From positions 868,001 to 932,000 of the forward strand of contig NW_027117340.1 in assembly GCF_038025025.1 (NCBI RefSeq): DNA of 64,000 nucleotides. The letters are read 5' to 3'. The first letter of the stretch is position 1, and the number at the start of each line of letters is the position of its first letter. The notes under the pieces are model-generated. The model was not told the DNA's origin, ran no database searches, and saw only the letters and a list, made by a program, of their open reading frames with translations. The DNA is from Phyllosticta citribraziliensis. Lineage: Eukaryota. This document shows positions 1-60,289 of this stretch, piece by piece. Position numbers and translations under genes: made by a program.

Positions 1-1350
1 TTATAAAGATATAAAAACTCCTTAAGTAATATTACTACTAGCTAGCTATAAATTACACGATTAATATTTATAGGTAAGGATGCTATATTTACTACTAAAT
101 AAAAGAGTTTTATAATAAAGACCTAGGCCTTCTATAACCCCTAGAGATTCCTACTTGACCCTAGTAATACTTAGCTATAGATTTTAAAGAGATACCTAAA
201 GACTAAAAGGGCTATAATATAATCCTAGTTATTATAGACTAGTTAAGTTAAAGAACCTTTAGTTTACCTTATATAAAAAAGATTAATACTAAAGGAGTCT
301 CTAGGCTCTTTTATAAATATATCTACTATATTTATAGAAACCCTAAGTCTATCCTATCTAACTAAGGCCCTTAGTTTATCTCAGCGTTTATAAATAAACT
401 ATATAAGCTAACTAGTATAGAGTAGCATTTTAACTTATCCTACTACTCTTAAACTAATAGTATTATAGAGATTATTAATCAGCATCTTATATAAAGATTA
501 AGACCTTTTATTAATTACTTTTAAAATGATTAGTCTAATCTTCTACTATTAATAGACCTTATACAAGTAATACTTCCCTATAAAGCTACTAGACTTTTAC
601 CTTTTAAGATTAAGTTAGGATATTCCCCTTAAATGTACTATAACTAGTAATAAAGAACTAAGACCCCCTAGTAACTAGAGAAGATAGCTCGTATAGTAGT
701 ATAAATACTATAAAAGAGAAGATAAGAAGCTTTTAAATTTATAAAGAATCTTATTCTTAAATCCTAAGAGCATATATACTAATAAGCTAATAAATACCAT
801 CGCGCGCTAGACTTTATAGTTAGAGATTATATCTATATTAAGAAAATAGGATGGTCTACTAATTAGCTAAACCTTAAATTAGACTTTCCTAATACTAGAC
901 CTTTTAAGATTATAGGAATAGAAGGATCCTCCTATATCCTTAATCTTCTCTTATATATAAAGATAGTTAACCTTTTCTATACTAATAGGCTATATAAGGC
1001 TGAAATGGAACAGCTTCCTAGTTAGGAATATACTAAACCTAAACCTAAGATTATTTAAGATAAGCCTAAGTGGGAAGTAGACTATATTTAAGCTAGTTAA
1101 GTCTTATATAGGAAGCTTTAATACTAAGTTAAATAGACTAGATATAACTAAGATGACTAGTAGTATAATATAAGTTCTTTTAGTAGCGCGCCGTAGAAAA
1201 TTAAAGAATTCTACTTATTATACCCTGTTATAGTAGGACTACTAAAAAATCTAGAAAAATAGAAGGCTGCCTTCCTCTAAGAAGAACTATAGATTAAAAT
1301 AGAAAGTAATAATAAAATAAGTTACTTAGGCCTATAGTAAATATTATAAA
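1..1350 (+). pseudogene. RIP-degraded Ty3/Gypsy pol C-terminus (integrase core, GPF/Y motif, chromodomain)
   Basis: De-RIPed reading at ~440-550 gives S..HPQTDG.TE..NQHL.QRLRPF.NYFQDDWSDLLP (integrase core). ~898-950 gives GPFKI....GSSY.L.L, and ~1065-1100 gives EWEVD.I.AS (chromodomain start). Confidence 0.85.
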
Positions 1351-3585
1351 GATATAGAAAGTAGACTAATTAGTTTACTATCTACCCTTATATAAATACT
1401 ATTAATCTTAACTTCTACTCTCTAGTCTCTCCTTTTTACTACTTATTTCCTACTATCCTCTTCTTTAATTTCTACCCTTTACTTCTTTCCTTTTCCCTTC
1501 TTCTTATTATAATAGTTATTATATAAGACTATCTCCTCTAGATCCTCTAGCTTATTAGGTAGGATATCCTACTTAGCTAAAGCCTAATTAGTTTAATCCT
1601 CTAACCTAGCTTAGTAGTATAAGTTCTAGAACTCCTCTATATAAATTTTATCTTTATGCCTCTTATAATAAGCAGGCGGCTTAGTACCCTTTAAGTCACT
1701 TATAGTGTAGTTAAGGTTACCTATACCTTAAAGGTAGTTAGTATAGCAGCCCTATAAGAAACCAGGCAGGTAGTAATAACTAATAAACGCGCGAGTGTTA
1801 GTATTATTATAATACTTAGTATAGCTAATAGGGTTATTAATTCTAGTATACTAGATAAGAAAAGCATCGCGTAAGCTAGCTTAAGTTTTAACTAATAAGT
1901 AGTTAAATTACTAAGTAGAAACTATAATATATAAGTAAGGTATGCTATTACCTAAGGCCAAGATATACTTAGTACGCTCTTATACTTTAGAACTACTAAG
2001 GCACGCCTATATAGTTAGTTAGATAAGAATCCCTTATATTAGTAAGATAAACTTACTCGCGCGACACTCTCTATATTCTTATAAGGGATATAAAGCGTTA
2101 ACTTAAAGTCCTACTTAATAGGTACCTTATTAGAGCTAACTAGTAACGCCGCAACGCGAATCTTACTATTACTGCTATTATATAAAGCAGCAGGCAGTAA
2201 GTACTTAGCTGCTAGAACCTAATAAGCTGTAGGATTATAATAATAGTATATATAAGTAGGCTCTTTACCTTCTTCCTCTAAAACAGGCTGCGCGACAGCG
2301 AACCGGCAGCGATATAGTATAATAGGCTGGTTAGTAGCAGGCTATATAGCTATAGATGACGAACCTTACGCGATAACTAATAATACTAATTAAGTAGAAC
2401 CTAATACTATAGTACGCTATAGGTAAAGTAATAAGCCTATAGCTATTCCTAGCTAAATAAGTAAAGCCTAGCCTAACTAAGTCTTTATATAAGTATCCTC
2501 CTCTATAATTATATCGGTTAGTAAGATGGGACGACAAAGTAGTAAAACCTAGATATATAATACTACTTAACAGCCTAGATAATAATTAGTAATAGTTAGA
2601 GATAGAATTAAAGTTTACTTACTTTAGGACTCTATATAATAGTCCTTATAGATACTACTAGCTAAAACAGCTCTCTAAGTAAGTAGTAACTATAATAGAT
2701 TGCAAATAATGCCATATAATAATAACTTAATACTATAACTCTTATATAATAGTAATAAGTCCTAATAGACCAGACTATAATAAGCAGTAGACACATTAAG
2801 TATATAGCAGCTAGGAATGTCTACTTTACTATTAGTAGGGTACAAATTATTTAAATTATTAGAACCTTTACGCGTAATAGTTAGTTTACTAGATTATAGC
2901 TAAATTAGACCAGGATAATAATATACTTTAATAGGGAGCTTTAGATATAGCTAAGTAAGATAGCGACCTTCTATAGGTCGTGCAGTAAAAGAGATAGTAA
3001 TAGAAAGAGATAGTATAGTAGTAGACCTAGACTAATAATTATACTATATATATAGAACGCTTAAATTACTAAATCACCGCCATTATATATTATAAGTCTA
3101 CGCCTATATAAGCGCCTATAGCTGCTAATTCCTATAATTTTAGCTTCTCTTTAGGGGGGGCATATTATAATAGGCGTATATATACCTATATAAGTACTAG
3201 GGCTAGTATAGATAAACCTAGCATTATATAGTTATAGGAAGCACGAGCCTTACCTTAGGTAGCAGCCCACTATAGCTTAGGCTAAAACCTACAGGCTAGT
3301 ACCAGCTACTACAGCCTGGCACTAGCCACTATAGCCTTAGGAAGATACTATATAACAGCCTATTAATACCTTACCTTTATAACTCACCTAATAATAACTA
3401 AGGACCCTTATATAAAGGACAAGAGGTAGAATAGTATAAAGGAAGGACTAGGAAATATATAGGTAGTAAGTATCTTTTATATTTCGTTCTTTTAACTTAT
3501 TAGATTTAATTAAGATATATATATATTCTCTAGTAGTTTACCTTTAGCCCTTACCTATATAATAAGAAATCTACAAGTCGTGATA
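1009..3585 (+). mobile_element. Gypsy element 3' portion, copy A (chromodomain, long 3' region, PPT, 3' LTR)
   Basis: Near-identical direct repeat of 3586-6160 (both start aa[c/t]agcttcctagttaggaat and end aagtcgtgata). Differences are mostly C/T and G/A transitions. Confidence 0.9.
3163..3585 (+). repeat. 3' LTR (423 bp) of copy A
   Basis: Preceded by polypurine tract AGGGGGGG (3153-3160). Termini tattata...cgtgata are the RIP products of the inverted termini TGTCACG...CGTGACA. Confidence 0.85.
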
Positions 3586-6160
3586 AATAGCTTCCTAGTT
3601 AGGAATATACTAAACCTAAACCTAAGATTATTTAAGATAAGCCTAAGTAGGAAGTAGACTATATTTAAGCTAGTTAAGTCTTATATAGGAAGCTTTAATA
3701 CTAAGTTAAATAGACTAGATATAACTAAGATAACTAGTAGTATAATATAAGTTCTTTTAGTAGCACACTATAGAAAATTAAAGAATTCTACTTATTATAC
3801 CCTATTATAGCAGGACTACTAAAAAATCTAGAAAAATAGAAGGCTACCTTCCTCTAAGAAGAACTATAGATTAAAATAGAAAGTAATAATAAAATAAGTC
3901 ACTTAGGCCTATAGTAAATATTATAAAGATATAGAAAGTAGACTAATTAGTTTACTATCTACCCTTATATAAATACTATTAATCTTAACTTCTACTCTCT
4001 AGTCTCTCTTTTTTACTACTTATTCCCTACTATCCTCTTCTTTAATTTTTACTCTTTACTTCTTTCCTTTTCCCTTCTTCTTATTATAATAATTATTATA
4101 TAAGACTATCTCCTCTAAATCCTCTAGCTTATTAGGTAGGATATCCTACTTAGCTAAAGCCTAATTAGTTTAATCCTCTAACCTAGCCTAGTAGTATAAG
4201 CTTTAAAACTCCTCTATATAAATCTCATCTTTATACCTCTTATAATAAGCAGGCGGCTTAGTACCCTTTAAGTTACTTATAGTATAATTAAGGTTACCTA
4301 TACCCTAAAGGCAGTTAGTATAGCAGCCCTATAAGAAACCAGGCAGGTAGTAATAACTAATAAACATATAAGTATTAGTATTATTATAACACTTAGTACA
4401 GCTAACAGGGTTATTAATTCTAGTATACTAGATAAGAAAAGTATTATACAAGCTAGCTTAGGTTTTAACTAATAAGTAGTTAAATTACTAAGTAGAAACT
4501 ATAATATATAAGTAAGGTATACTATTACCTAAGGCCAAGATACATTTAGCACACTCTTATACTTTAGAACTACTAAGGCGTACCTATATAGTTAGTTAGA
4601 TAAGAATCCCTTATATTAGTAAGATAAACTTACTTATATAACACTCTCTATATTCTTATAAGGAATATAAAGTATTAACTTAAAGTCCTACTTAATAGGT
4701 ACCTTATTAGAGCTAACTAGTAATGCTATAATATAAATCTCACTATTACTACTATTATATAAAGCAGCAGGTAGTAAGTACTTAGCTACTAGAACCTAAT
4801 AAGCTATAGGATTATAATAATAGTATATATAAGTAGGCTCTTTACCTTCTTCCTCTAAAGTAGGCTATGTAATAGTAAACTAGTAGTGATGCGGTATAAT
4901 AGGCTGGTTAGTAGCAGGCTATATAGCTATAGATAATGAACCTCGCGCGATAACTAATAATACTAATTAAGTAGAACCTGATACTATAGTATACTATAGG
5001 TAAAGTAATAAGCCTCCTAGCTAAATAAGTAAAGCCTGGCCTAACTAAGTATTTACGCAAGTATCCTCCTCTATAATTATATTAGTTGGCAAGATAGGAT
5101 AATAAAGTAGTAAAACCTAGATATATAATACTACTTAATAGCCTAGATAATAATTAGTAACAGTCTAAAGAGATAGAATTAAAGTTTACTTACCTTAGGA
5201 CTCTATATAATAGCCCTTATAGATACTACTAGCTAAAATAGCTCTCTAAGTAAGTAGTAACTATAATAGATTATGAATAATACTATATAATAATAACTTA
5301 GTACTGTAACTCTTATATAATAGTAATAAGTCCTGATAGACTAGACTATAATAAGTAGTAGATATATTAAGTATATAGTAGCTAGGAATATCTGCTTTAC
5401 TATTAGTAGGGTATAAATTATTTAAATTATTAGAACCTTTATATATAATAGTTAGTTTACTAGATCATGGCTAAATTAGACTGGGATAATAATATACTTT
5501 AATAGGGAGCTTTAGATATAGCTAAGTAAGATAGTAACCTTCTATAGGTTATATAGTAAAAGAGATAGTAATAGAAAGAGATGGTATAGTAGTAGACCTA
5601 GACTAATAATTATACTTTATAACTATATAGAATGCTTAAATTACTAAATTACTACTGTTATATATTATGAGTCTATACCTATATAAGTGCCTATAGCTAC
5701 TAATTCCTATAATTTTAGCTTCTCTTTAGGGGGGGCATATTATAATAGGCATATATATACCTATATAAGTACTAGGGCCAGCATGGATAAACCTAGTATT
5801 ATATAGTTATAGGAAGTATAAGCCTTACCTTAGGTAGTAGCCTGCCATAGCTTAGGCTGAAACCTATAGGCTAGTACTAGCTACTATAGCCTGGTACTAG
5901 CTACTATAGCCTTAGGAAGATACCATATAATAGCCTATTAATACCTTACCTTTATAACTTACCTAATAATGACTAAGGACCCTTATATAAAGGATAAGAG
6001 GTAGAATAGTATAAAGGAAGGACTAGGAAATATATAGGTAGTAAGTATCTTTTATATTTTATTCTTTTAACTTATTAGATTTAATTAAGATATATATGTA
6101 TTCTCTAGTAGTTTGCCTTTAGCCCTTACCTATATAATAAGAAATCTGCAAGTCGTGATA
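3586..6160 (+). mobile_element. Gypsy element 3' portion, copy B
   Basis: Second unit of the ~2.58 kb direct repeat, with the same chromodomain, PPT (5728-5735) and LTR. Confidence 0.9.
5738..6160 (+). repeat. 3' LTR (423 bp) of copy B
   Basis: PPT then tattata...cgtgata, same length as and homologous to 3163-3585. Confidence 0.85.
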
Positions 6161-6544
6161 GTATTCTAGGTATATAGAAGCTTTAAGATAACTAACTCCC
6201 TATATAGAGTTAAATACTTAAGCCTAATTTATATCTACTAAGGTACTAAGATATAATATCTAGATAATAAGACTATTTATACCTATAGGTATATCTTAGG
6301 CTAAACTTAGAGGGGGGTAATATTATAGGTTAGCTAAAAATCTATAATTATATTAAATACTAATTAGTATTAAATATTAGGTATACCTATATTATAACTA
6401 CTAGCTATAATTATAAGCTATATATACTAAAATTATCTAATTCCCTAAGAGCCTTAGCTACTTAGATAACTTAACCCTAGTACTTATATATATAATACTA
6501 ATATAATAATAGAAATAAGAATAGAACCTTCTATACCTATAGTA
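6161..6544 (+). mobile_element. 3' end of a different RIPed LTR retrotransposon (PPT + ~224 bp LTR at 6321-6544)
   Basis: PPT GAGGGGGG at ~6310-6317. Terminal inverted repeat tattataggt (6321) / acctatagta (6535-6544), 9/10 match. No similarity to the 423-bp LTR seen by eye. Confidence 0.6.
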
Positions 6545-7308
6545 GGGATTTAATTAAGTAGTTAGTTTTAAGAAATATATTACTACTATTAAGCTAGTAA
6601 TCTACTATATAATATAGGATTAAAATAAGGTCTTATTCTCTTCTAGTACCTATCTTCCTTCTATTATAATTTCTAAGGTAAGTTAGATAATAGAATATAA
6701 AAGAATCTTATTATATAAATACTATAGATAGCTATCTTTATTTTCTTATAATTAATACTCCTAAGTAGACTTACTATTAATTTAACTTCTATCTTATTTA
6801 TATACCCTTCTTACTTAGCTTTATCTCCTATACTTATATACTCTAGTACTAGGTAAATAGTTACTTAGAACTAGCCTACTAATTAGGTAATCTATTAGCT
6901 TATAATAGTCTTATACTACTTAAATAATAAGATAATAGCTAGATAGTAGCTTATTTTAGTTAGTTTAGTAGTTATTTTAGTCCTATTCTATAGAGCCTAC
7001 TTATTTACTACTAGCTACTATCTCTTATACCTCTTCTAGTACTAGTATTTTAGCCGGCTAAGTAAGTATATTAGTAAGTAGCTAGTCCTACCTATACTAG
7101 TAGAGTAAATTAATATAGACTACTAATAATTAATAGGTAAGGAGTAAGAGTAGTTATTATATAGCCTATATAGAATAACTATCTACTCCTAGGCTAGCTA
7201 TAAATAGCTAGTATATATATAAGTAGTAAATACTAAGTGCTAAATACTATAAAATATAAACTATATATACTATATAGTATATAATACTCCTAGGCTAACT
7301 AAATAAGG

Positions 7309-7312
<4 letters not shown>

Positions 7313-7338
<26 letters not shown>
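7313..7338. repeat. (TA)13 microsatellite within RIPed DNA
   Basis: Direct reading of the sequence. Confidence 0.9.
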
Positions 7339-7343
<5 letters not shown>

Positions 7344-7651
7344 TACTAAATACTATAAAATATAACTAGAATAGTATAGTAGTATATATATAATAATTTT
7401 ACCTATTATCTACTATAGTAACTATATTATTACCCCTTAATTTAACCCTCTATAGTACTAAGTCTTATACTAGTTATTTTAGGTATTATTATAATTAGCC
7501 TAGTACTTAGTAACTTACTTATTAAAGCTCTATAGATATACTTTCTCTTACTAAGATATATATAATTTCTTAATTAACTATGGTAGACTTCACGTATATA
7601 GCTTAAAACAAGCAAGTAAAAGGTGTTCGTGTAAACTATATAGAGAAGAAA

Positions 7652-52956: not shown

Positions 52957-54488
52957 ATGCCGGCCAAGTCGCGCTTCACGCGGCTAGATGCCTTTACAAA
53001 GACGGTCGAGGATGCGCGCGTGCGCACCACGTCTGGCGGGCTGATAACAATAACCAGCCTGTTGATGATTCTGTGGCTCATATGGGGCGAGTGGGCAGAC
53101 TACCGGCGAATCCTGGTGAAGCCGGAGCTGATTGTGGACAAGGGCAGAGGTGGGTTGTTGCAATCCTGCATCAATTGATGCGCCACGGACGGGACGAGCG
53201 CTGACGGCCGACGGTGCAGGCGAGAAGATGGAGATTCACATGAACATTTCGTTCCCACGCGTGCCCTGTGAGCTGCTTACGTTGGACGTCATGGACGTGT
53301 CTGGCGAAATCCAGACGGGCGTCATGCACGGCGTCAACAAGGTCAGGCTCTCGCCCGAAAACGAGGGCAGCCGCGTTCTGGAGAGCAAGGCGCTGGATCT
53401 GTAAGGCATCCCCGCGTTCAATTCAACCACCAGCCCCAGGATTGACCATACGGCAACAGCCACTCCGAGGAAGCCTCCCACATGGACCCCGACTACTGCG
53501 GCCAATGCTACGGCGCCCCTCCTCCCACCAACGCCAAAAAGGCCGGCTGCTGCAACACATGCGACGACGTCCGCGACGCCTACGCCAGCATCTCGTGGTC
53601 GTTTGGACGGGGCGAGAACGTCGAGCAGTGCGAGCGCGAGCACTACGCCGAGAAGCTCGACGCCCAGCGCAAGGAAGGCTGCCGCATCGAAGGCGGCATC
53701 CGGGTCAACAAGGTCGTGGGCAACTTCCACTTTGCGCCGGGCAAGAGCTTCAGCACCGGCAACATGCACGTGCACGATCTCGAAAACTACTTCAAGGACG
53801 AGTGGAGCCATAGCTTCAGCCACAAGATCCACTCGCTGCGCTTCGGGCCTCAGCTGCCCGACGACGTCGTGGCCAAGCTCGAGGCGTCGGGCAAGAGCGC
53901 GTCGTCGCTGTGGACCAACCACCACGTCAACCCGCTCGACGACACGGAGCAGCGCACCGAGGAAAAGGCCTTCAACTACATGTACTTTGTCAAGGTCGTC
54001 AGCACCGCGTACCTGCCGCTGGGCTGGGAGTCGCGCGCCGCCACCGACACCAAGACGGGCCTGTCGGCCATCTTGCCCGACACCAACAGCCTGCCCATCG
54101 GCAGCTACGGCCTCGACAGCCAGGCTGGCAGCATCGAGACCCACCAGTACAGCGTCACGAGCCACAAGCGCAGCCTGACGGGCGGCGCCGACGGCGAGGG
54201 CCACAAGGACAGACTGCACGCCCGCGGCGGCATTCCCGGTGTCTTTTTCTCCTATGTGTGTTCTCCTTCCTCCCGATCCGCCCCTCTCAGGAGATGAATT
54301 GGCTAACGAGGCTCGTACAGGATATTTCGCCCATGAAGGTCATCAACCGCGAAGCCCGCGCCAAGAGCTTCTCCGCCTTCCTCGTCGGCGTGTGCGCCGT
54401 CATTGGCGGCACGCTCACGGTCGCGGCGGCCGTGGACCGCGCGCTGTACGAGGGCAGTTCGCGGCTCAAGAAGCTGCACACGGGTTGA
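52957..54488 (+). CDS. ERV46: ER-Golgi intermediate compartment protein Erv46 (ERGIC3), 4 exons
   Basis: RLDAFTKTVEDARVRTTSGG, CGQCYGA...CCNTCDDVRDAY, EGCRIEGGIRVNKVVGNFHFAPG, GGIPGVFFSYDISPMKVINRE and a C-terminal TM segment. Confidence 0.95.
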
Positions 54489-56540
54489 GTAAGTGCTTCG
54501 TTGCATCTCGTGTTTTTGACTTGATGCCGCTCGAGTCGTTGTTGTTAGCCGTAGGCTATTGGATGATGGATGATGTGGATGTACAGTGAGTGAGTGTAGC
54601 CAATCGGAGCATTTATGTGCAGATGGGCAAAACCGGAGACGGAGTTGCGTTTTGTTGCGTTGAGCGTGGTAGAAAGAAACGACGGAGCGGAGGAAACAGA
54701 CGAAATGGCAGTGTGTGGTGACAGCAGCCAGCCAAAGAAAGACGGCAAAAGAGATAACGGGAGAAGAAGTGTTTGTAAGGCCGGGGCGGGCGTATGTAGG
54801 CGTTTGATTTGATTTAGTTGGTAGGTATGTATCCAGGGTCCTCCCTCCCCCTTTTCGCATGTACATAGCTTGAGATAGTCGCCGTCGTCGTGGTTGTTAT
54901 TCTCCTAGTCTTGTCTCTCTTCCTCTTCACCTCCACTTGTCTTCCTCCCTCCTTCACTCTCATCTGACCTCGTCTCATCTCGTCCTCCCATGAAGGAACC
55001 TCATCATTCGTCTATCCAGGCATATCAAGCCAGCCTGCTAGTCCATCCACAAACGCTTCCGGCTTCCAGATCAACGCAGGCAGGCAGGAGTGCGATACGC
55101 AGCACGCACGCACGCACGCACGCCATATATTGCTTCGATGCATCAAGACAGACAACATCAGCCTCATCAGCCTCGTCGGCGTCAGCGTTGCAATTCCTTC
55201 TTCACACACGCATCGATCCACCCATCCATGCATGCATGCATGCCATGCTGTGTTTGCCACGCAGCTTGCGTCAAAAGCAACACCACTGACGAAAGCGCCA
55301 AGGCGTTGAGCTGAGCTGAAATCTGGAGCGAAGGAGGAGTCGAGCTGAAATGTATGTTTGGATGGTGTGTGTGGAGGGAAGGGTGGAGGGATGGGGAGAT
55401 GAGGAGGCGCAGAAGTGGTGTGCTTTTGCGCCTGTCTGTCGCTCGCTCGCTCGCTGCAGTGTGTGTGCTCCTCTGTAACTACCCATGTGACTGGCCTGCC
55501 CGCCGGGTGCATTGTTGGATGGTTCCAACCAAGGTTGGTTGGTTGACTACGTGATTGACGCCATTACTGACGCATGTGGCATCTTCGCTCGCGTGCGTGC
55601 GTGCTACGTGCGTGCTACGTGCGTGCGCTACCAGCGACATAGTTACCTCCCGTAAGCATATACAGGTACACACGCTGCTGCGTGCTCGATTCTTGCTTTT
55701 ACTTTTGCCTTTGCTTTCCACTTTGACTTTCCTTCCTCTGGCTTTTCTCCACTTCCTGTCTTCGCGCTGGGAAATCTACCAACCAACCATCTACCTACCA
55801 GCTGACGAATAGACTCACGTCAAATGTCGAACTTCACTCCAATCCAACTTCGTCGGGGTGGGGAGGCGAGGCTGATTTGAGCTGAGAGCTGAGAGTGGAT
55901 GGATGGAAGAGAGGATAGGGAAGGCAATAGTGGCAGGTGGTAGGTGGTAGGTGGTAGATGTGAGGAGAGGAGATGAGGTAGGTGAGGTGCACAAGTGCTA
56001 CCTACCTCCTTTGTCTTTCATTCCCGTCCCTTCTCTTCTCTTCTCTTCTCTTTTCTTGACATCTCTTGTCTTACCCATTCTTCCTCTACTCTCGCACACT
56101 TTACCTCACCATCTCCCATCCTCTCCAGTCAACAGGCCACCAACAGTCCATCAACCATCAATCACTTCTACAGCACGAACGCGCAACAACAAAGGCGGAG
56201 TGGAAAAAAGTCAGAAGTGGTATTCATTCATATACATAAACCATACAACCAAACCAGCTCAAGGCAAATAGGTATCGTATCGTATCGGACAGATGAGTGC
56301 GTAGGTAGATACCGCGCAAGCTCAAAGGTAGGTAGATGAGCAGCGCCAGATGCGCCGCCGCTTCCCGTCCCCTTTGTCGGTTGCGCGTTTCCTTTCCTTT
56401 CTCCTCTTCTGTCTTGTTCTCTGATGCTCTCGCTCTCCTTGGTCTGAGCCAGCGCTATTTACGCTGCTCGTCGCGTCTTCTCTCGTCTCGCACACCACAT
56501 ACATCGTCATCGTTACAGTCCAACACGGCACGAGGTGTGC

Positions 56541-56777
56541 CTAACAGACCGACCAAAAGCTCTCCTCGCTGGCCTCTCGCACTCGCGCTCCAGCAGCTCC
56601 AGAGCCGCCGTGCGGCGCCAGCTCGTCGCCCCACACGTCGCCTTCATCCTCGTCCTCCTCTTCGCCCTCGGCATCAATCTCTACCACCTCAACGCCGGCG
56701 TCATCGCCCTCGAGCGTCTCCGTCTCGCTCGTCGCCGGCGGGCTCGGCGGCCCCTCGATTGGCCGCCGCAGTAATTG
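56541..56777 (-). other. Candidate stop-codon readthrough extension (78 aa) of the TamA/Dal81-like protein
   Basis: TGA at 56780-56778 is followed by CAATTA, an 8-bp GC hairpin and 78 open codons to TAG at 56543-56541, with acidic, coding-like composition. Confidence 0.7.
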
Positions 56778-59288
56778 TCACGCCGAGCTGATGGGCGTCT
56801 TGAGGCCGCCGCGCTCCTCGGCCTCGTCGGCGTCGGCATCTGCGTCGGCATCCGCTTCCCCGGCGTCGTCTTCCATCATTTCGTGCTCCATCAGCTCGTC
56901 CGCGTCCATGTCGCCGTCGAGCTCCGCGTCGCTGGCGTCGTCGCCTTCGCCTTCGCTCATGAGGAGCATGTGGTCGTCGTCGGGGTCGACGTCCAACGAC
57001 GCAGACGCAGACACCTGGTGCGACGAGGGATGCAGCGTGTAGCGGTGGTAGGGGTGGCCCGAAGAAGACGACGCCGTGGATTGGAAGCCGCTGTGGCTGA
57101 GGGCAGACACCGACGAGAGGCCCGTCTTCCACGACGGAACGCCCGAGTCGGAGACGGAAAAGGGCTGGTTGCGGCGTGGTGGTTGGTGGACTTGATCGGC
57201 CAGGCGCGGCTTCTCGTCGACCCCCTTGAGCATCTCCCGGCTGGCGTCGAGGACGCGGATGGCGTAGTCGAGCCAGCGCGCCTGCGAGGCGCTCACGCTC
57301 AGCGTCCAGCGATACTCGCGAAGTCGCGTGCGGTAAAAGTCGGCCTCCTCCTTTCCTGGCGCCGTGGCCCACAGCAAAGATCCAAACGTGCCAATCAGCG
57401 TGAAGTTGATCTTGGACGCAAAGTACCAGAAGCTCTGCAGGTGCGCCGGGGTCAAGCGGTTCACAAAGTCCATGGCTGAGATGAGGCGCGTTTTGGCCGC
57501 CGAGCGACAGATGAAGAGGAGGTACGGGTCCGACGTGTCGGGGTCAAGCGACTGCACGATGCGCCGGTGCAATGTGATTTCGGTCGCAAAGTAGGCCAGA
57601 TGCAGAGCACCGGTTGCTGCGGGCGGTTTAGCAGGGAAAACGCCACGAAAGGAGTGCGTCAGAGGCGGCGGGGTGGTATTACCAGTACTGGTCGAGGCTC
57701 GCGAGTTGCTCTGGCTGTCGATGCGCGTCGACGGAGGCAACCTCGCGAACCACTCCTTCAGCTTGATTTGCACCGGCTTGGCGCGCTCCAGGATGAGCCG
57801 CGTCGAGTTCTTGCCGGCTGACCGAAAGTCTTGAATGGCCGTCTGCGTGTAAAACGTATCCATGACTTCGGCCATGATGGCCGTCAGGGTAATCATTTGC
57901 GCATACACGTACGCCCCCTTTTCATCCTCGGCCGCCTCGTCCTCGCTGCCTGCTCGTAACACCTCGCCCGTCTGCGACGCCCCCTCCTCGCAAAAGTCCT
58001 CGTCCGTCAGGGGTTCCACTGCCCAGTCGGCACTGAAGATGTGAGATGGTCGGCCATGGATCAGTGAGCTCCACTTGTCCTGCATGTACAGAGCCCAGGC
58101 GATACGCTTCCTCAGCCCCCTTTCCCACAAAGGAATCGTCCAGTTGGTGCAATCCAAGTGCAGGCCCAATTCTTGTCCAATGGCTACCAGTTGAGTGGTT
58201 AAGCTCCACGCGTCCGAGTCGGGGCGCTGGAGCAGCAGCAGGCCAGCCTGGATGGTAGAGAGCTTTGGCCGCTCCATGGCCTTGGGCATCCACTGGTACG
58301 CAATGGCCTCCAGCCTGGCTACGTCAGGCTTTGGGAGCGACGCCAGCCTCGAGTCGTGTGACCACCACTGCAATGCCAAGATGTAGATGCCGGCCAGGAG
58401 CGGCGGCGAGATTTGACGATCGGCATCCCGATGGCGCTGCATGAACAAGCTTTTCTGGATGACGGGGAAGCTGGGATGGACGGTGCCAAAGTAAATGTCC
58501 ATCAGGGTCGAGCCGTGGGGGGCCACGACGGCCTCGACGGCGTTCAAGGCTTCGGTTTCGTGGTCATAGTCTTGGGTGTTTTCGTCGGGCAGCATGATGA
58601 AATGTTCATGGCTGTCAACCTTGCGCAGCACACCGAGGTCAATGGTGCTCTCGTTGCGGTGGTCGAACTGGGCGAGGCTGATGAGCAGCGGGTCCAAGGG
58701 GGTCGTTGGACCAATGTATTTGCTGTGTTGCTTGCGCTGGAGGCCCAGGGTCTCTTGCAGCGTGTGGGCAGTCGTGTCCCTGACCTGGGGGACGTGGGGC
58801 GAGAACCTGGTCCGTGGCGAGCGCTGGAGAGGAGTTGGAGGTTGTCGCGAGAGCTCCCTATCGACGGACCTGTGATGGACGAGAGTCAGTATCACGCAGG
58901 GGGAGTGGGGGGTCAGGTAGGTTCTATGTCGGTACCTCTTCTTGACGCCTTGGTCGGATAGGGAATCTTGGTTGTGAATCTTTCGTTTGCGCGGCAGGGG
59001 GCTCTGGACAAAGGTGCAGTCCTGCTTGTGGAACTCGCACAAGACGCACAGCAGGGCGCCGTCGTGGATGACGCAGCGGCTCTTGCGGCGGCGACAGGCG
59101 TCACAGGGTCTCTCACGGCGCGAGCGGACGGCAGGAGTGATTTGGGCTTGGGACGAGTGCGGCTTCAGAGGAAAGACATTCTCCTTGCCGGGCATGGCAG
59201 ACTTTGTTTTGGGACGGGCGGCAGCTATAGGCACAAGGTCTGGAGCAGGACGAGGCATGGCGGGCTGTATAGCTACGGCCGTCGACAT
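56778..59288 (-). CDS. tamA: Zn(II)2Cys6 transcription factor of the TamA/Dal81 family (probable in-frame introns 58870-58935 and 57617-57682)
   Basis: CDACRRRKSRC...CVLCEFHKQDC binuclear cluster, fungal TF middle homology region (ELGLHLDC...ERGLRKRIAWALYMQDKW), and LHLAYFATEITLHR / AKTRLISAMDFVNRL recalled as TamA/Dal81-like. Confidence 0.85.
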   Translation of the reverse strand: MSTAVAIQPAMPRPAPDLVPIAAARPKTKSAMPGKENVFPLKPHSSQAQITPAVRSRRERPCDACRRRKSRCVIHDGALLCVLCEFHKQDCTFVQSPLPRKRKIHNQDSLSDQGVKKRYRHRTYLTPHSPCVILTLVHHRSVDRELSRQPPTPLQRSPRTRFSPHVPQVRDTTAHTLQETLGLQRKQHSKYIGPTTPLDPLLISLAQFDHRNESTIDLGVLRKVDSHEHFIMLPDENTQDYDHETEALNAVEAVVAPHGSTLMDIYFGTVHPSFPVIQKSLFMQRHRDADRQISPPLLAGIYILALQWWSHDSRLASLPKPDVARLEAIAYQWMPKAMERPKLSTIQAGLLLLQRPDSDAWSLTTQLVAIGQELGLHLDCTNWTIPLWERGLRKRIAWALYMQDKWSSLIHGRPSHIFSADWAVEPLTDEDFCEEGASQTGEVLRAGSEDEAAEDEKGAYVYAQMITLTAIMAEVMDTFYTQTAIQDFRSAGKNSTRLILERAKPVQIKLKEWFARLPPSTRIDSQSNSRASTSTGNTTPPPLTHSFRGVFPAKPPAATGALHLAYFATEITLHRRIVQSLDPDTSDPYLLFICRSAAKTRLISAMDFVNRLTPAHLQSFWYFASKINFTLIGTFGSLLWATAPGKEEADFYRTRLREYRWTLSVSASQARWLDYAIRVLDASREMLKGVDEKPRLADQVHQPPRRNQPFSVSDSGVPSWKTGLSSVSALSHSGFQSTASSSSGHPYHRYTLHPSSHQVSASASLDVDPDDDHMLLMSEGEGDDASDAELDGDMDADELMEHEMMEDDAGEADADADADADEAEERGGLKTPISSA

Positions 59289-59425
59289 GTCGTTTGTGGC
59301 GGAGATGACCAAGCTCCAACCTGATAGACGGATACAGACTGCGGGTCGTCGATTAGTGCCCGTTCCAAGATGGAGGGTCTGGCGGGCTGCGAACCAGTGA
59401 CGTGAGTAGCTCAGGCGGGCCGGAC

Positions 59426-60289
59426 TGATAAGGACAAGGTATGTAAGGTTCAGGTTGGGGTCGGGGTCGGGTTCGGAGTCGCGTGTGGAGGATGGATGTG
59501 GAAGGGCTTATCGGGCGGCGAGGCGAGATGTATGTATGTATGTATGCAGGCGGGAGAAGATGGGCGATTGGATTCAAAAGTAGGTGGGTAGGTAGGGATG
59601 CCGCAAGAGCAGTGCCAGCGCAGCCGGAGAAGACAATCCGAATCCGAAATGGGGCAAATGCTCAAGGGCCGTGAGAGAGGAAGATGAGGAAGTGGATGGT
59701 GCGTTCCGTCATTGAGAGAGCGAGAGGGAAGCGGAGGGCGAGCAGGCAGGAACAGCAGGTCAGAATGGCTGCCTCCTTGTGCTCTGCTGGCGGGCCGAGA
59801 CCGAGACGGGGCGCGGCGCGGGAGCGGGTGGTGATGGCGGGCGTGGTGTTGAGGTCGCATGGCATGGCAGGCTGGAGTTCCAATGAAGATATAGATAAGC
59901 TAAGGGCCCTGAGTAAAGGCCTTGGCGTGGGCTTGGTCGTTGTTACGTACTGGATATTCTCCCTTATCAGGCTGCCGCCATTGGCTCGCGCTGCCCGACC
60001 ATTACTCCCGCTATTATTCACCTTCACCTTCACCTTCACCTTCACCACCTCACAACTCCATCTCCGCGTCGCCTCCTGTCGTTTGGCCCTGTCATCTCTC
60101 CGAACTCATTCCGTCGCCTCCGTCGCCTCCACTCCGTCGTCGCCCTGGCACGTGACGTCCTTCTCTTCCACCAAACCTCAGTTACGTTACCCTTTCGAGC
60201 CCCCATGGCCATCTCTCTCTCCCTCCGCCCCTCTGACGCTCTTCTCGCCGCCAGGACTCCAACTCGCACGACCCTCGCTCCCATTATCT
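59426..60289. promoter_or_regulatory. Cluster of HGATAA (GATA-factor) motifs in the divergent promoter region
   Basis: TGATAA 59426, CGATAA (rev) 59508, AGATAA 59893, TGATAA (rev) 59964, AGATAA (rev) 60284, in otherwise GC-rich DNA. Confidence 0.35.

Follow-up and report, generated by a model that had tools for sequence, protein, structure and literature searches.

A candidate programmed UGA readthrough signal, combining a tobamovirus-type hexamer with an adjacent hairpin, in the TamA-like transcription factor gene of Phyllosticta

That cellular genes can undergo programmed readthrough of their stop codons is well established for insects and for a few genes of mammals. The fungal examples known to us are a few yeast genes and cryptic peroxisomal signals. 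Here we describe a candidate from the plant-associated fungus Phyllosticta citribraziliensis, found in a stretch of 64,000 nucleotides (nt) of RefSeq assembly GCF_038025025.1 (contig NW_027117340.1, positions 868,001 to 932,000; hereafter the window, with all positions counted from its first letter). It lies at the end of a minus-strand gene for a Zn2Cys6 transcription factor resembling the nitrogen regulator TamA (also named OTam), the TGA stop codon of which is directly followed by the hexamer CAATTA, a compact G:C hairpin and an open frame of 78 codons (Table 1). The preferred reading, to which we give a probability of roughly 0.55, is a programmed readthrough of the UGA of the type used by tobacco mosaic virus (TMV; stop-CARYYA), aided by the nearby stem, by which the gene would produce a short and a long TamA isoform.

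The closest described counterpart is the type I signal of tobamoviruses, in which the stop is followed by CAA-UYA or, more generally, CARYYA. According to the excerpts cited here, readthrough is promoted by CARYYA in TMV as in many plant viruses and by CARNBA in yeast, and UGA-CARYYA allows about 15% readthrough in a human-cell reporter, UGA being about equal to UAG (PMC4132726); for UGA-CAA-UUA, values of 5.8–10.1% were obtained in a reporter (PMC3159437). The Phyllosticta locus shares with type I the CAAUUA directly after the stop and the in-frame extension, but it is a cellular fungal gene, it has UGA rather than the usual UAG, it carries a stable hairpin that these excerpts do not describe as needed by type I, and its readthrough is predicted from sequence alone. 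With the type II viral signals (alphavirus, tobravirus and furovirus), it shares UGA-C and a stem starting 9 nt after the stop, whereas the viral stems enclose about 100–150 nt and show compensatory changes, and the Phyllosticta hairpin is compact (8 bp, with an 8-nt loop) and without variation to compare. Stimulatory stems typically begin 7–9 nt after the stop, and spacers of 8–9 nt are on record (PMC3159437, in the excerpt); at 9 nt, the stem described here falls within this range.

Among cellular genes, the UGA-CUA signals that underlie peroxisomal dual targeting in fungi and animals (PMC4207609, in part) are alike in that fungi read through the UGA-C of a chromosomal gene in a programmed manner. 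They differ in the hexamer, in acting on metabolic enzymes instead of a transcription factor, and in their peroxisomal targeting signal (PTS1), as the tail predicted here ends in SVC. Some animal transcription factors, namely Drifter/Vvl and Traffic jam of Drosophila and human VDR (excerpts of PMC8417969, PMC9226519 and PMC5868278), are likewise DNA-binding regulators with a C-terminal extension, predicted at first on the grounds of a coding signature past the stop, but kingdom and motifs differ, and the animal cases have reporter or in vivo proof. Adenosine-to-inosine (A-to-I) editing in Sordariomycetes also produces C-terminal disordered extensions in filamentous ascomycetes by loss of a stop; there the edited codons are UAG in hairpin loops, at the sexual stage (PMC13123824, as excerpted), whereas the fungus described here is a Dothideomycete and its UGA lies outside the stem. 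The literature covered, supplementary files lying outside that coverage, yielded no report of readthrough for TamA/Dal81 or for any transcription factor of a filamentous fungus. Recoding of this kind is known, and the locus would add a member to it from a gene family and from a class of fungi for which no reported case was found; if the reading is correct, the gene would be the first for a fungal transcription factor to use programmed readthrough.

Table 1. Positions in the window of the gene, of the elements around its stop codon, and of the segments compared with the contig of sequencing run X4 (UTR, untranslated region; indels, insertions or deletions).
Feature	Position	Strand	Length or sequence	Remarks
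Zn2Cys6 transcription factor gene (TamA/OTam-like)	56778..59288	minus		ATG 59288, TGA 56780-56778; spliced coding sequence of 792 codons
Intron 1	58870..58935	minus	66 nt; GTACCG...ACTGAC...CACAG	read from sequence
Intron 2	57617..57682	minus	66 nt; GTAATA...CGCAG	
Coding sequence compared with X4	56781-57170		390 nt	13 substitutions (6 synonymous, 7 not), no indels listed
Block identical to X4	56704..56804	minus	101 nt	last 8 codons, TGA, CAATTA, hairpin, extension codons 1-24
Annotated stop, proposed to be leaky	56778..56780	minus	TGA	unchanged in X4
Exact stop-CARYYA hexamer	56772..56777	minus	CAATTA	directly after TGA; also fits yeast CARNBA
Hairpin	56743..56771	minus	CU-G-CGGCGGCC / aatcgagg / GGCCGCCG-AG	from folding; no difference in X4
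In-frame extension	56544..56777	minus	78 codons; QLLRRPIEG...EESFWSVC	coding-like composition and substitutions
Extension and both stops compared with X4	56541-56780		240 nt	9 substitutions (7 synonymous, all at codon position 3), 0 indels
Second stop	56541..56543	minus	TAG	conservation and composition shift here
Region beyond second stop compared with X4	56300-56540		241 nt	18 substitutions, 8 indels (32 letters)
True 3'UTR past the extension	56300..56540	minus		apparently transcribed in sister taxon; X4 contig goes about 150 nt further

Read on the minus strand, the sequence around the stop is ...ATC AGC TCG GCG TGA CAA TTA CTG CGGCGGCC aatcgagg GGCCGCCG AG. The core arms of the hairpin (56768–56761, CGGCGGCC, and 56752–56745, GGCCGCCG) form eight G:C pairs around the loop of 8 nt, beginning after the 9-nt spacer, and the flanking CU and AG lengthen the stem around a bulged G. 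Folded by itself the hairpin reaches −18.7 kcal/mol, while the value for a region of 101 nt is −45.6 kcal/mol, compared with −38.3 ± 3.5 for shuffled sequences (z = −2.1; 8 of 200 shuffles were as good). The stop, the hexamer, the hairpin and the 78-codon frame had been pointed out in an earlier note on this DNA, and proved correct to the base, with an identical peptide. A search of 56100–57000 against Rfam gave only a match to the SAH riboswitch below threshold (18.9 bits against a gathering score of 37, E = 0.64), which is taken as chance.

Within the window, CARYYA is found once per about 525 positions, and only one of the 100 open reading frames (ORFs) of at least 150 amino acids has stop-CARYYA, that of the transcription factor. 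Perfect 8-bp hairpins with loops of 3–12 nt number 47 in the 64 kb, mostly in an AT repeat, and the one at this stop is the only example with at least seven G or C in the stem. It is unlikely that the open frame, the hexamer and the hairpin have come together by chance. The combination was, however, chosen post hoc, so the weight of the argument must rest on comparison with relatives.

The extension contains 23 Asp or Glu among its 78 residues, four Lys or Arg, two Trp and one Phe, and as it is without Met, entry into it must come from upstream. Its C-terminal SVC does not fit the PTS1 consensus (S/A/C-K/R/H-L/M), which speaks against cryptic peroxisomal targeting. Taken alone, the length of the open frame is within reach of chance (P = 0.13 with the composition of the region, 0.07 by shuffling, and 0.03 with the composition of the window). 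The extension has a G+C fraction of 0.68 (0.79, 0.51 and 0.75 at the three codon positions), similar to exon 3 (0.65; 0.63, 0.47 and 0.84), and past the second stop this falls to a flat 0.51 without codon periodicity. Scores of codon usage, trained on eight other long ORFs of the window, give the extension a log-odds per codon of +0.23 in frame and of −0.22 and −0.24 out of frame; the corresponding values for exon 3 are +0.31, −0.24 and −0.15, and the next two pieces of the UTR are at or below zero in every frame. The extension has no match to a Pfam family, none to database proteins of near length, and none among 1346 candidates of greater length. HMMER, run with the extension on 1.84 billion representatives, returned a single match (E = 7.6e-4, a protein of 2415 residues, 29% identity), taken as acidic low complexity. 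Among the 120 relatives listed for the transcription factor protein, none extends beyond the stop.

For comparison with sister taxa, contigs of the sequencing runs X4, X10, X11 and X18 were aligned to 56300–57750 at a likeness of at least 80%; those of X11 exclude 56758–56805, and X18 covers only 57396–57619. Run X4 provides one contig of 3547 nt, at a depth of 491, that lacks intron 2. The label of RNA in its record is a guess, but the contig is read as a spliced transcript because its intron-2 joint (57616 to 57683, 66 nt skipped, CT..AC on the plus strand) is exact, as in X11, a declared RNA-seq run, while a contig of X10 retains the intron and spans it. No joint occurs in the X4 contig through the TGA, the entire extension and past 56300, which argues that the main mRNA of this sister taxon is collinear with the genome around the stop. 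Its 3'UTR, measured from the TGA, would be about 630 nt. The 40 differences listed for X4 stand in positional order to 57170, and the list is taken as complete up to that point because the seven amino-acid changes it gives for 56781–57170 equal the differences between the window and the most similar database protein (P0001, from Phyllosticta citrichinensis).

The pattern of these differences carries the argument for a coding extension. Apart from two changes that replace a residue (P to Q and A to T), all substitutions in the extension are synonymous, and when the same types of mutation were placed at random, at least seven synonymous changes were obtained in only 53 of 20,000 trials (P = 0.0027). 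The absence of indels, at the rate seen in the UTR beyond, has P = 0.0003. One full comparison (X4) thus shows the signature of coding constraint, and the partial data from X10 and X11, two more distant Phyllosticta-like runs, agree with it as far as they go. In the second record of X10, the indels inside the extension are three single-base deletions (at 56678, 56680 and 56683) that sum to three, and the frame is kept; X11 has 32 differences and 6 gap letters over 56498–56757. We consider with good confidence that the extension encodes a protein sequence under purifying selection in Phyllosticta. The identical block around the stop has P of about 0.02–0.04 at local substitution rates, weak evidence that would suggest an additional constraint at the level of nucleotides. 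The earlier note had looked to relatives for conservation of the signal, and this is borne out in X4, which keeps the TGA, the hexamer, the stem and the frame, but not in distant orthologues, none of 77 having the motif.

The stop itself is not a recent acquisition. Seven of nine protein models fetched from Botryosphaeriales end in ...GGLKTP[IV]SxA (three from Phyllosticta, and those of Macrophomina, Neofusicoccum, Diplodia and Lasiodiplodia), the remaining two being an alternative model from P. citricarpa (P0004) and one from Aplosporella (P0023); a protein derived from Logan (P0009) ends in ...GGLTPVSAA. Judged by these models, the position of the stop is ancestral, and older than the split between Phyllostictaceae and Botryosphaeriaceae. 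A strain-specific nonsense allele or a sequencing error, either of which the earlier note had named as a possible refutation, is ruled out by the shared position in the seven models and the same TGA in X4.

Under programmed readthrough, the Phyllosticta TamA/OTam orthologue would give two proteins from one mRNA that is unspliced at the stop. Most ribosomes would terminate at the UGA, producing the form of 792 residues that ends in ...GGLKTPISSA, and a minority would decode the UGA by a near-cognate tRNA, adding 78 residues as an acidic tail with Trp and Phe that ends in ...EESFWSVC. The level of the leak would be set by the UGA and the CAAUUA that follows, the stop-CARYYA context of tobamoviruses, and the G:C hairpin, 9 nt past the stop and at the spacing of known stimulatory structures, probably boosts it. 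We infer readthrough as the route, and likewise its efficiency, the residue inserted (for a UGA, yeast would lead one to expect Trp, Arg or Cys), and any influence that the tail may have on activation, on stability or on the binding of partners; the tail might conceivably be a degron, bind partners or provide an additional activation module. A wider proposal is evenly balanced between holding and failing: that a genus-conserved switch of viral design (UGA-CAAUUA with hairpin) yields the long TamA, the ratio of isoforms perhaps being tuned by nutrient or translational state, and an acidic activation or turnover module with Trp and Phe being added or changed.

The alternative that survives best is that nothing is translated past the stop, the proximal 3'UTR being kept for RNA stability, localisation or protein binding, and the frame and motif being coincidental or an old coding sequence that is fading. 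Such constraint on the RNA does not predict that seven of nine substitutions should fall at third positions (P = 0.0027), that codon usage should be in frame, or that indels should come only in multiples of three. The nine substitutions do come from a single full comparison, and 78 open codons are not rare in a stretch rich in G and C (P = 0.03–0.13). The acidic, GA-rich composition of the extension also resembles that of the neighbouring coding repeat, the protein searches brought no support for translation, and all 77 distant orthologues lack the feature. Weighing the pattern of substitutions against these points, we regard an RNA-level explanation as unlikely. The version of it in which an old coding sequence is decaying is excluded, as the stop is older than the split of the two families while constraint acts between sister species.

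A second alternative grants that the extension is coding, and supposes that a rare splice variant lacking the stop, or some other route, gives access to it, with CAATTA and the hairpin being incidental or signals for splicing. It draws on the deposited P. citricarpa model P0004 (695 amino acids), which ends in ...AGTRAREASEESSWSVC, that is, the tail of the extension and its second stop. In this model a predicted intron of about 500 nt skips the whole acidic C-terminus and joins ...LLSVS to the last 17 codons of the extension frame. Judging from the ending AGTRAREASEESSWSVC, the last part of the extension and its stop are retained in P. citricarpa, and the model may mean either that the gene finder sensed coding potential or that a rare isoform exists. 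Introns of the window itself have weak donors (GTACCG and GTAATA), which leaves weak sites plausible, and rare isoforms get dropped from contigs. The spliced contig of X4 nevertheless passes the stop without a joint, as the check for splicing proposed in the earlier note would have it for readthrough, and the joint predicted in P0004 is not present in the contigs of X4 or X11. Across the TGA there are 129 frame-keeping GT..AG pairs (35–600 nt long, donors from 57200 to the stop), and every one of them by which extension codons 25–76 would be retained has a GAG acceptor and no branch-site motif. In the 200 nt that precede the stop, GT occurs just once, as GTGACA at the stop itself, and its use would give introns of 39 or 54 nt. 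An intron of the P0004 type would, in addition, omit most of the region with the coding signature, the synonymous changes lying in codons 25–76. No credible frame-keeping intron across the stop was found, and entry by splicing is rated as distinctly improbable.

Editing of the UGA to UGI, to be read as Trp at some stage of the life cycle, is a far weaker candidate. In Fusarium and Neurospora, C-terminal tails are commonly added by stop-loss editing, and here a hairpin lies nearby; but in the excerpt at hand (PMC13123824) the fungal activity favours UAG and adenosines within hairpin loops, and its origin is placed in Sordariomycetes, whereas this stop is a UGA, 9 nt upstream of the stem, with its A preceded by G. 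The earlier note had called for RNA to exclude editing, and the X4 contig, read as RNA, shows no change at 56778. We consider editing very improbable. Least credible is that the constraint is due to a gene on the opposite strand, where a plus-strand ORF (56545–57042) has third codon positions in common with the extension frame, making seven of the nine substitutions likewise synonymous: no ATG of this ORF comes before 56791, which in the plus sense lies past the whole extension, so that 56545–56777 would not be translated from it, its product would be a low-complexity Ser/Pro/Ala mirror of the acidic codons, and the transcript contigs are spliced in the minus-strand sense, for which reasons it was rejected as the source. 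Fungi are not known to have the machinery for selenocysteine. With splicing, editing and an antisense gene disfavoured, translational readthrough remains as the route into the extension.

Several points weigh against this conclusion. No database protein was found to contain the extension. The coding signature comes from one complete pairwise comparison, with nine substitutions only, and among the runs the conservation of stop, hexamer and stem can be read in X4 alone, the status of which as RNA rests on the intron-2 joint. At 80% likeness X10 is unaligned below 56612, the distal third of the extension, and of the 17 residues in the tail of P0004, 3 are not those of the window. The stem, being invariant in X4, provides no evidence of covariation, and the z of the regional fold is only −2.1. 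The taxonomic spread is narrow as well. Among 80 metagenomic loci of TamA relatives, three leave their contig before the stop, and in the 77 that could be scored (several being near-duplicates, and with no intron assumed between the match and the stop), neither stop-CARYYA nor a comparable acidic tail was present in any, the frames after the stop being short or non-acidic. The readthrough feature, as far as these loci show, is young or restricted to a lineage, and does not characterise the TamA/Dal81 family as a whole.

If programmed readthrough does operate here, a fungus would be using stop-CARYYA, best known from plant viruses, on one of its own genes, that of a global nitrogen regulator. 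The locus would provide a compact natural cassette of about 60 nt for the joint action of hexamer context and a nearby stem. Current annotations of TamA in Phyllosticta, a genus of citrus pathogens and common endophytes, would be missing an isoform. The check for a coding signature behind stop codons would be worthwhile across fungal genomes.

The assignment of the gene follows from its domains and its nearest matches. Its two introns are in-frame, and excision of intron 1 gives ...KKR|SVDRE..., matching the related proteins P0001 and P0003. Pfam finds Fungal_trans in the protein (E = 5.7e-21) and scores Zn_clus at 19 bits, slightly below the cut-off of 21, the motif CDACRRRKSRC...C being present; it therefore has both parts expected of the TamA/Dal81 family, a Zn(2)Cys(6) cluster and a fungal-specific transcription factor domain. 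The top match is P0001, a 'nitrogen regulatory protein OTam' of P. citrichinensis, with 97% identity over the C-terminal part. The name TamA/Dal81 is taken from those given to the nearest matches by their sources, 'nitrogen regulatory protein OTam' and 'Transcriptional activator protein DAL81'. The description 'TamA/Dal81-like' in the earlier note accordingly stands as to the domains, and orthology to TamA of Aspergillus nidulans or Dal81 of Saccharomyces cerevisiae is putative, following the database names.

The ordinary C-terminus of the protein (56781–57000, minus strand) is acidic and studded with Met and Leu, and includes an (Ala-Asp)n repeat. In X10, 101 nt of the acidic repeat in the coding sequence (56837–56939) are exchanged for 77 others, a difference of 24 that is a multiple of three, and a deletion of 3 nt is found at 56814. 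The repeat, in these alignments, is variable in length among Phyllosticta taxa, with the frame being kept. Many distant orthologues (loci L045–L080) end after an acidic run with a terminal Trp or Tyr (...EMEVDGW, ...DEDEGDY, ...DMDDWSS). An acidic-aromatic end seems to recur in the TamA family, and the Phyllosticta extension (…GDVWGDE…, …EESFWSVC) would be one more example.

The length of the X4 contig implies a 5'UTR of about 440–500 nt for the gene (59289–59790, minus strand), which is long by fungal standards. Its convergent neighbour (53446–54297, plus strand) encodes an endoplasmic-reticulum vesicle transporter domain (COPIIcoated_ERV, E = 4e-68). Between the two convergent gene ends lie about 1.9 kb (54600–56540) without a long ORF, of which at least the right-hand part is transcribed as 3'UTR of the transcription factor gene. 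At the other end of the window, positions 1–7400 are AT-rich and contain a (TA)n run as well as numerous perfect hairpins of short length, most evident at 7312–7330, compared with a G+C content of 53% for the window as a whole. This stretch may represent repeat-derived DNA, or DNA of the kind left by repeat-induced point mutation.

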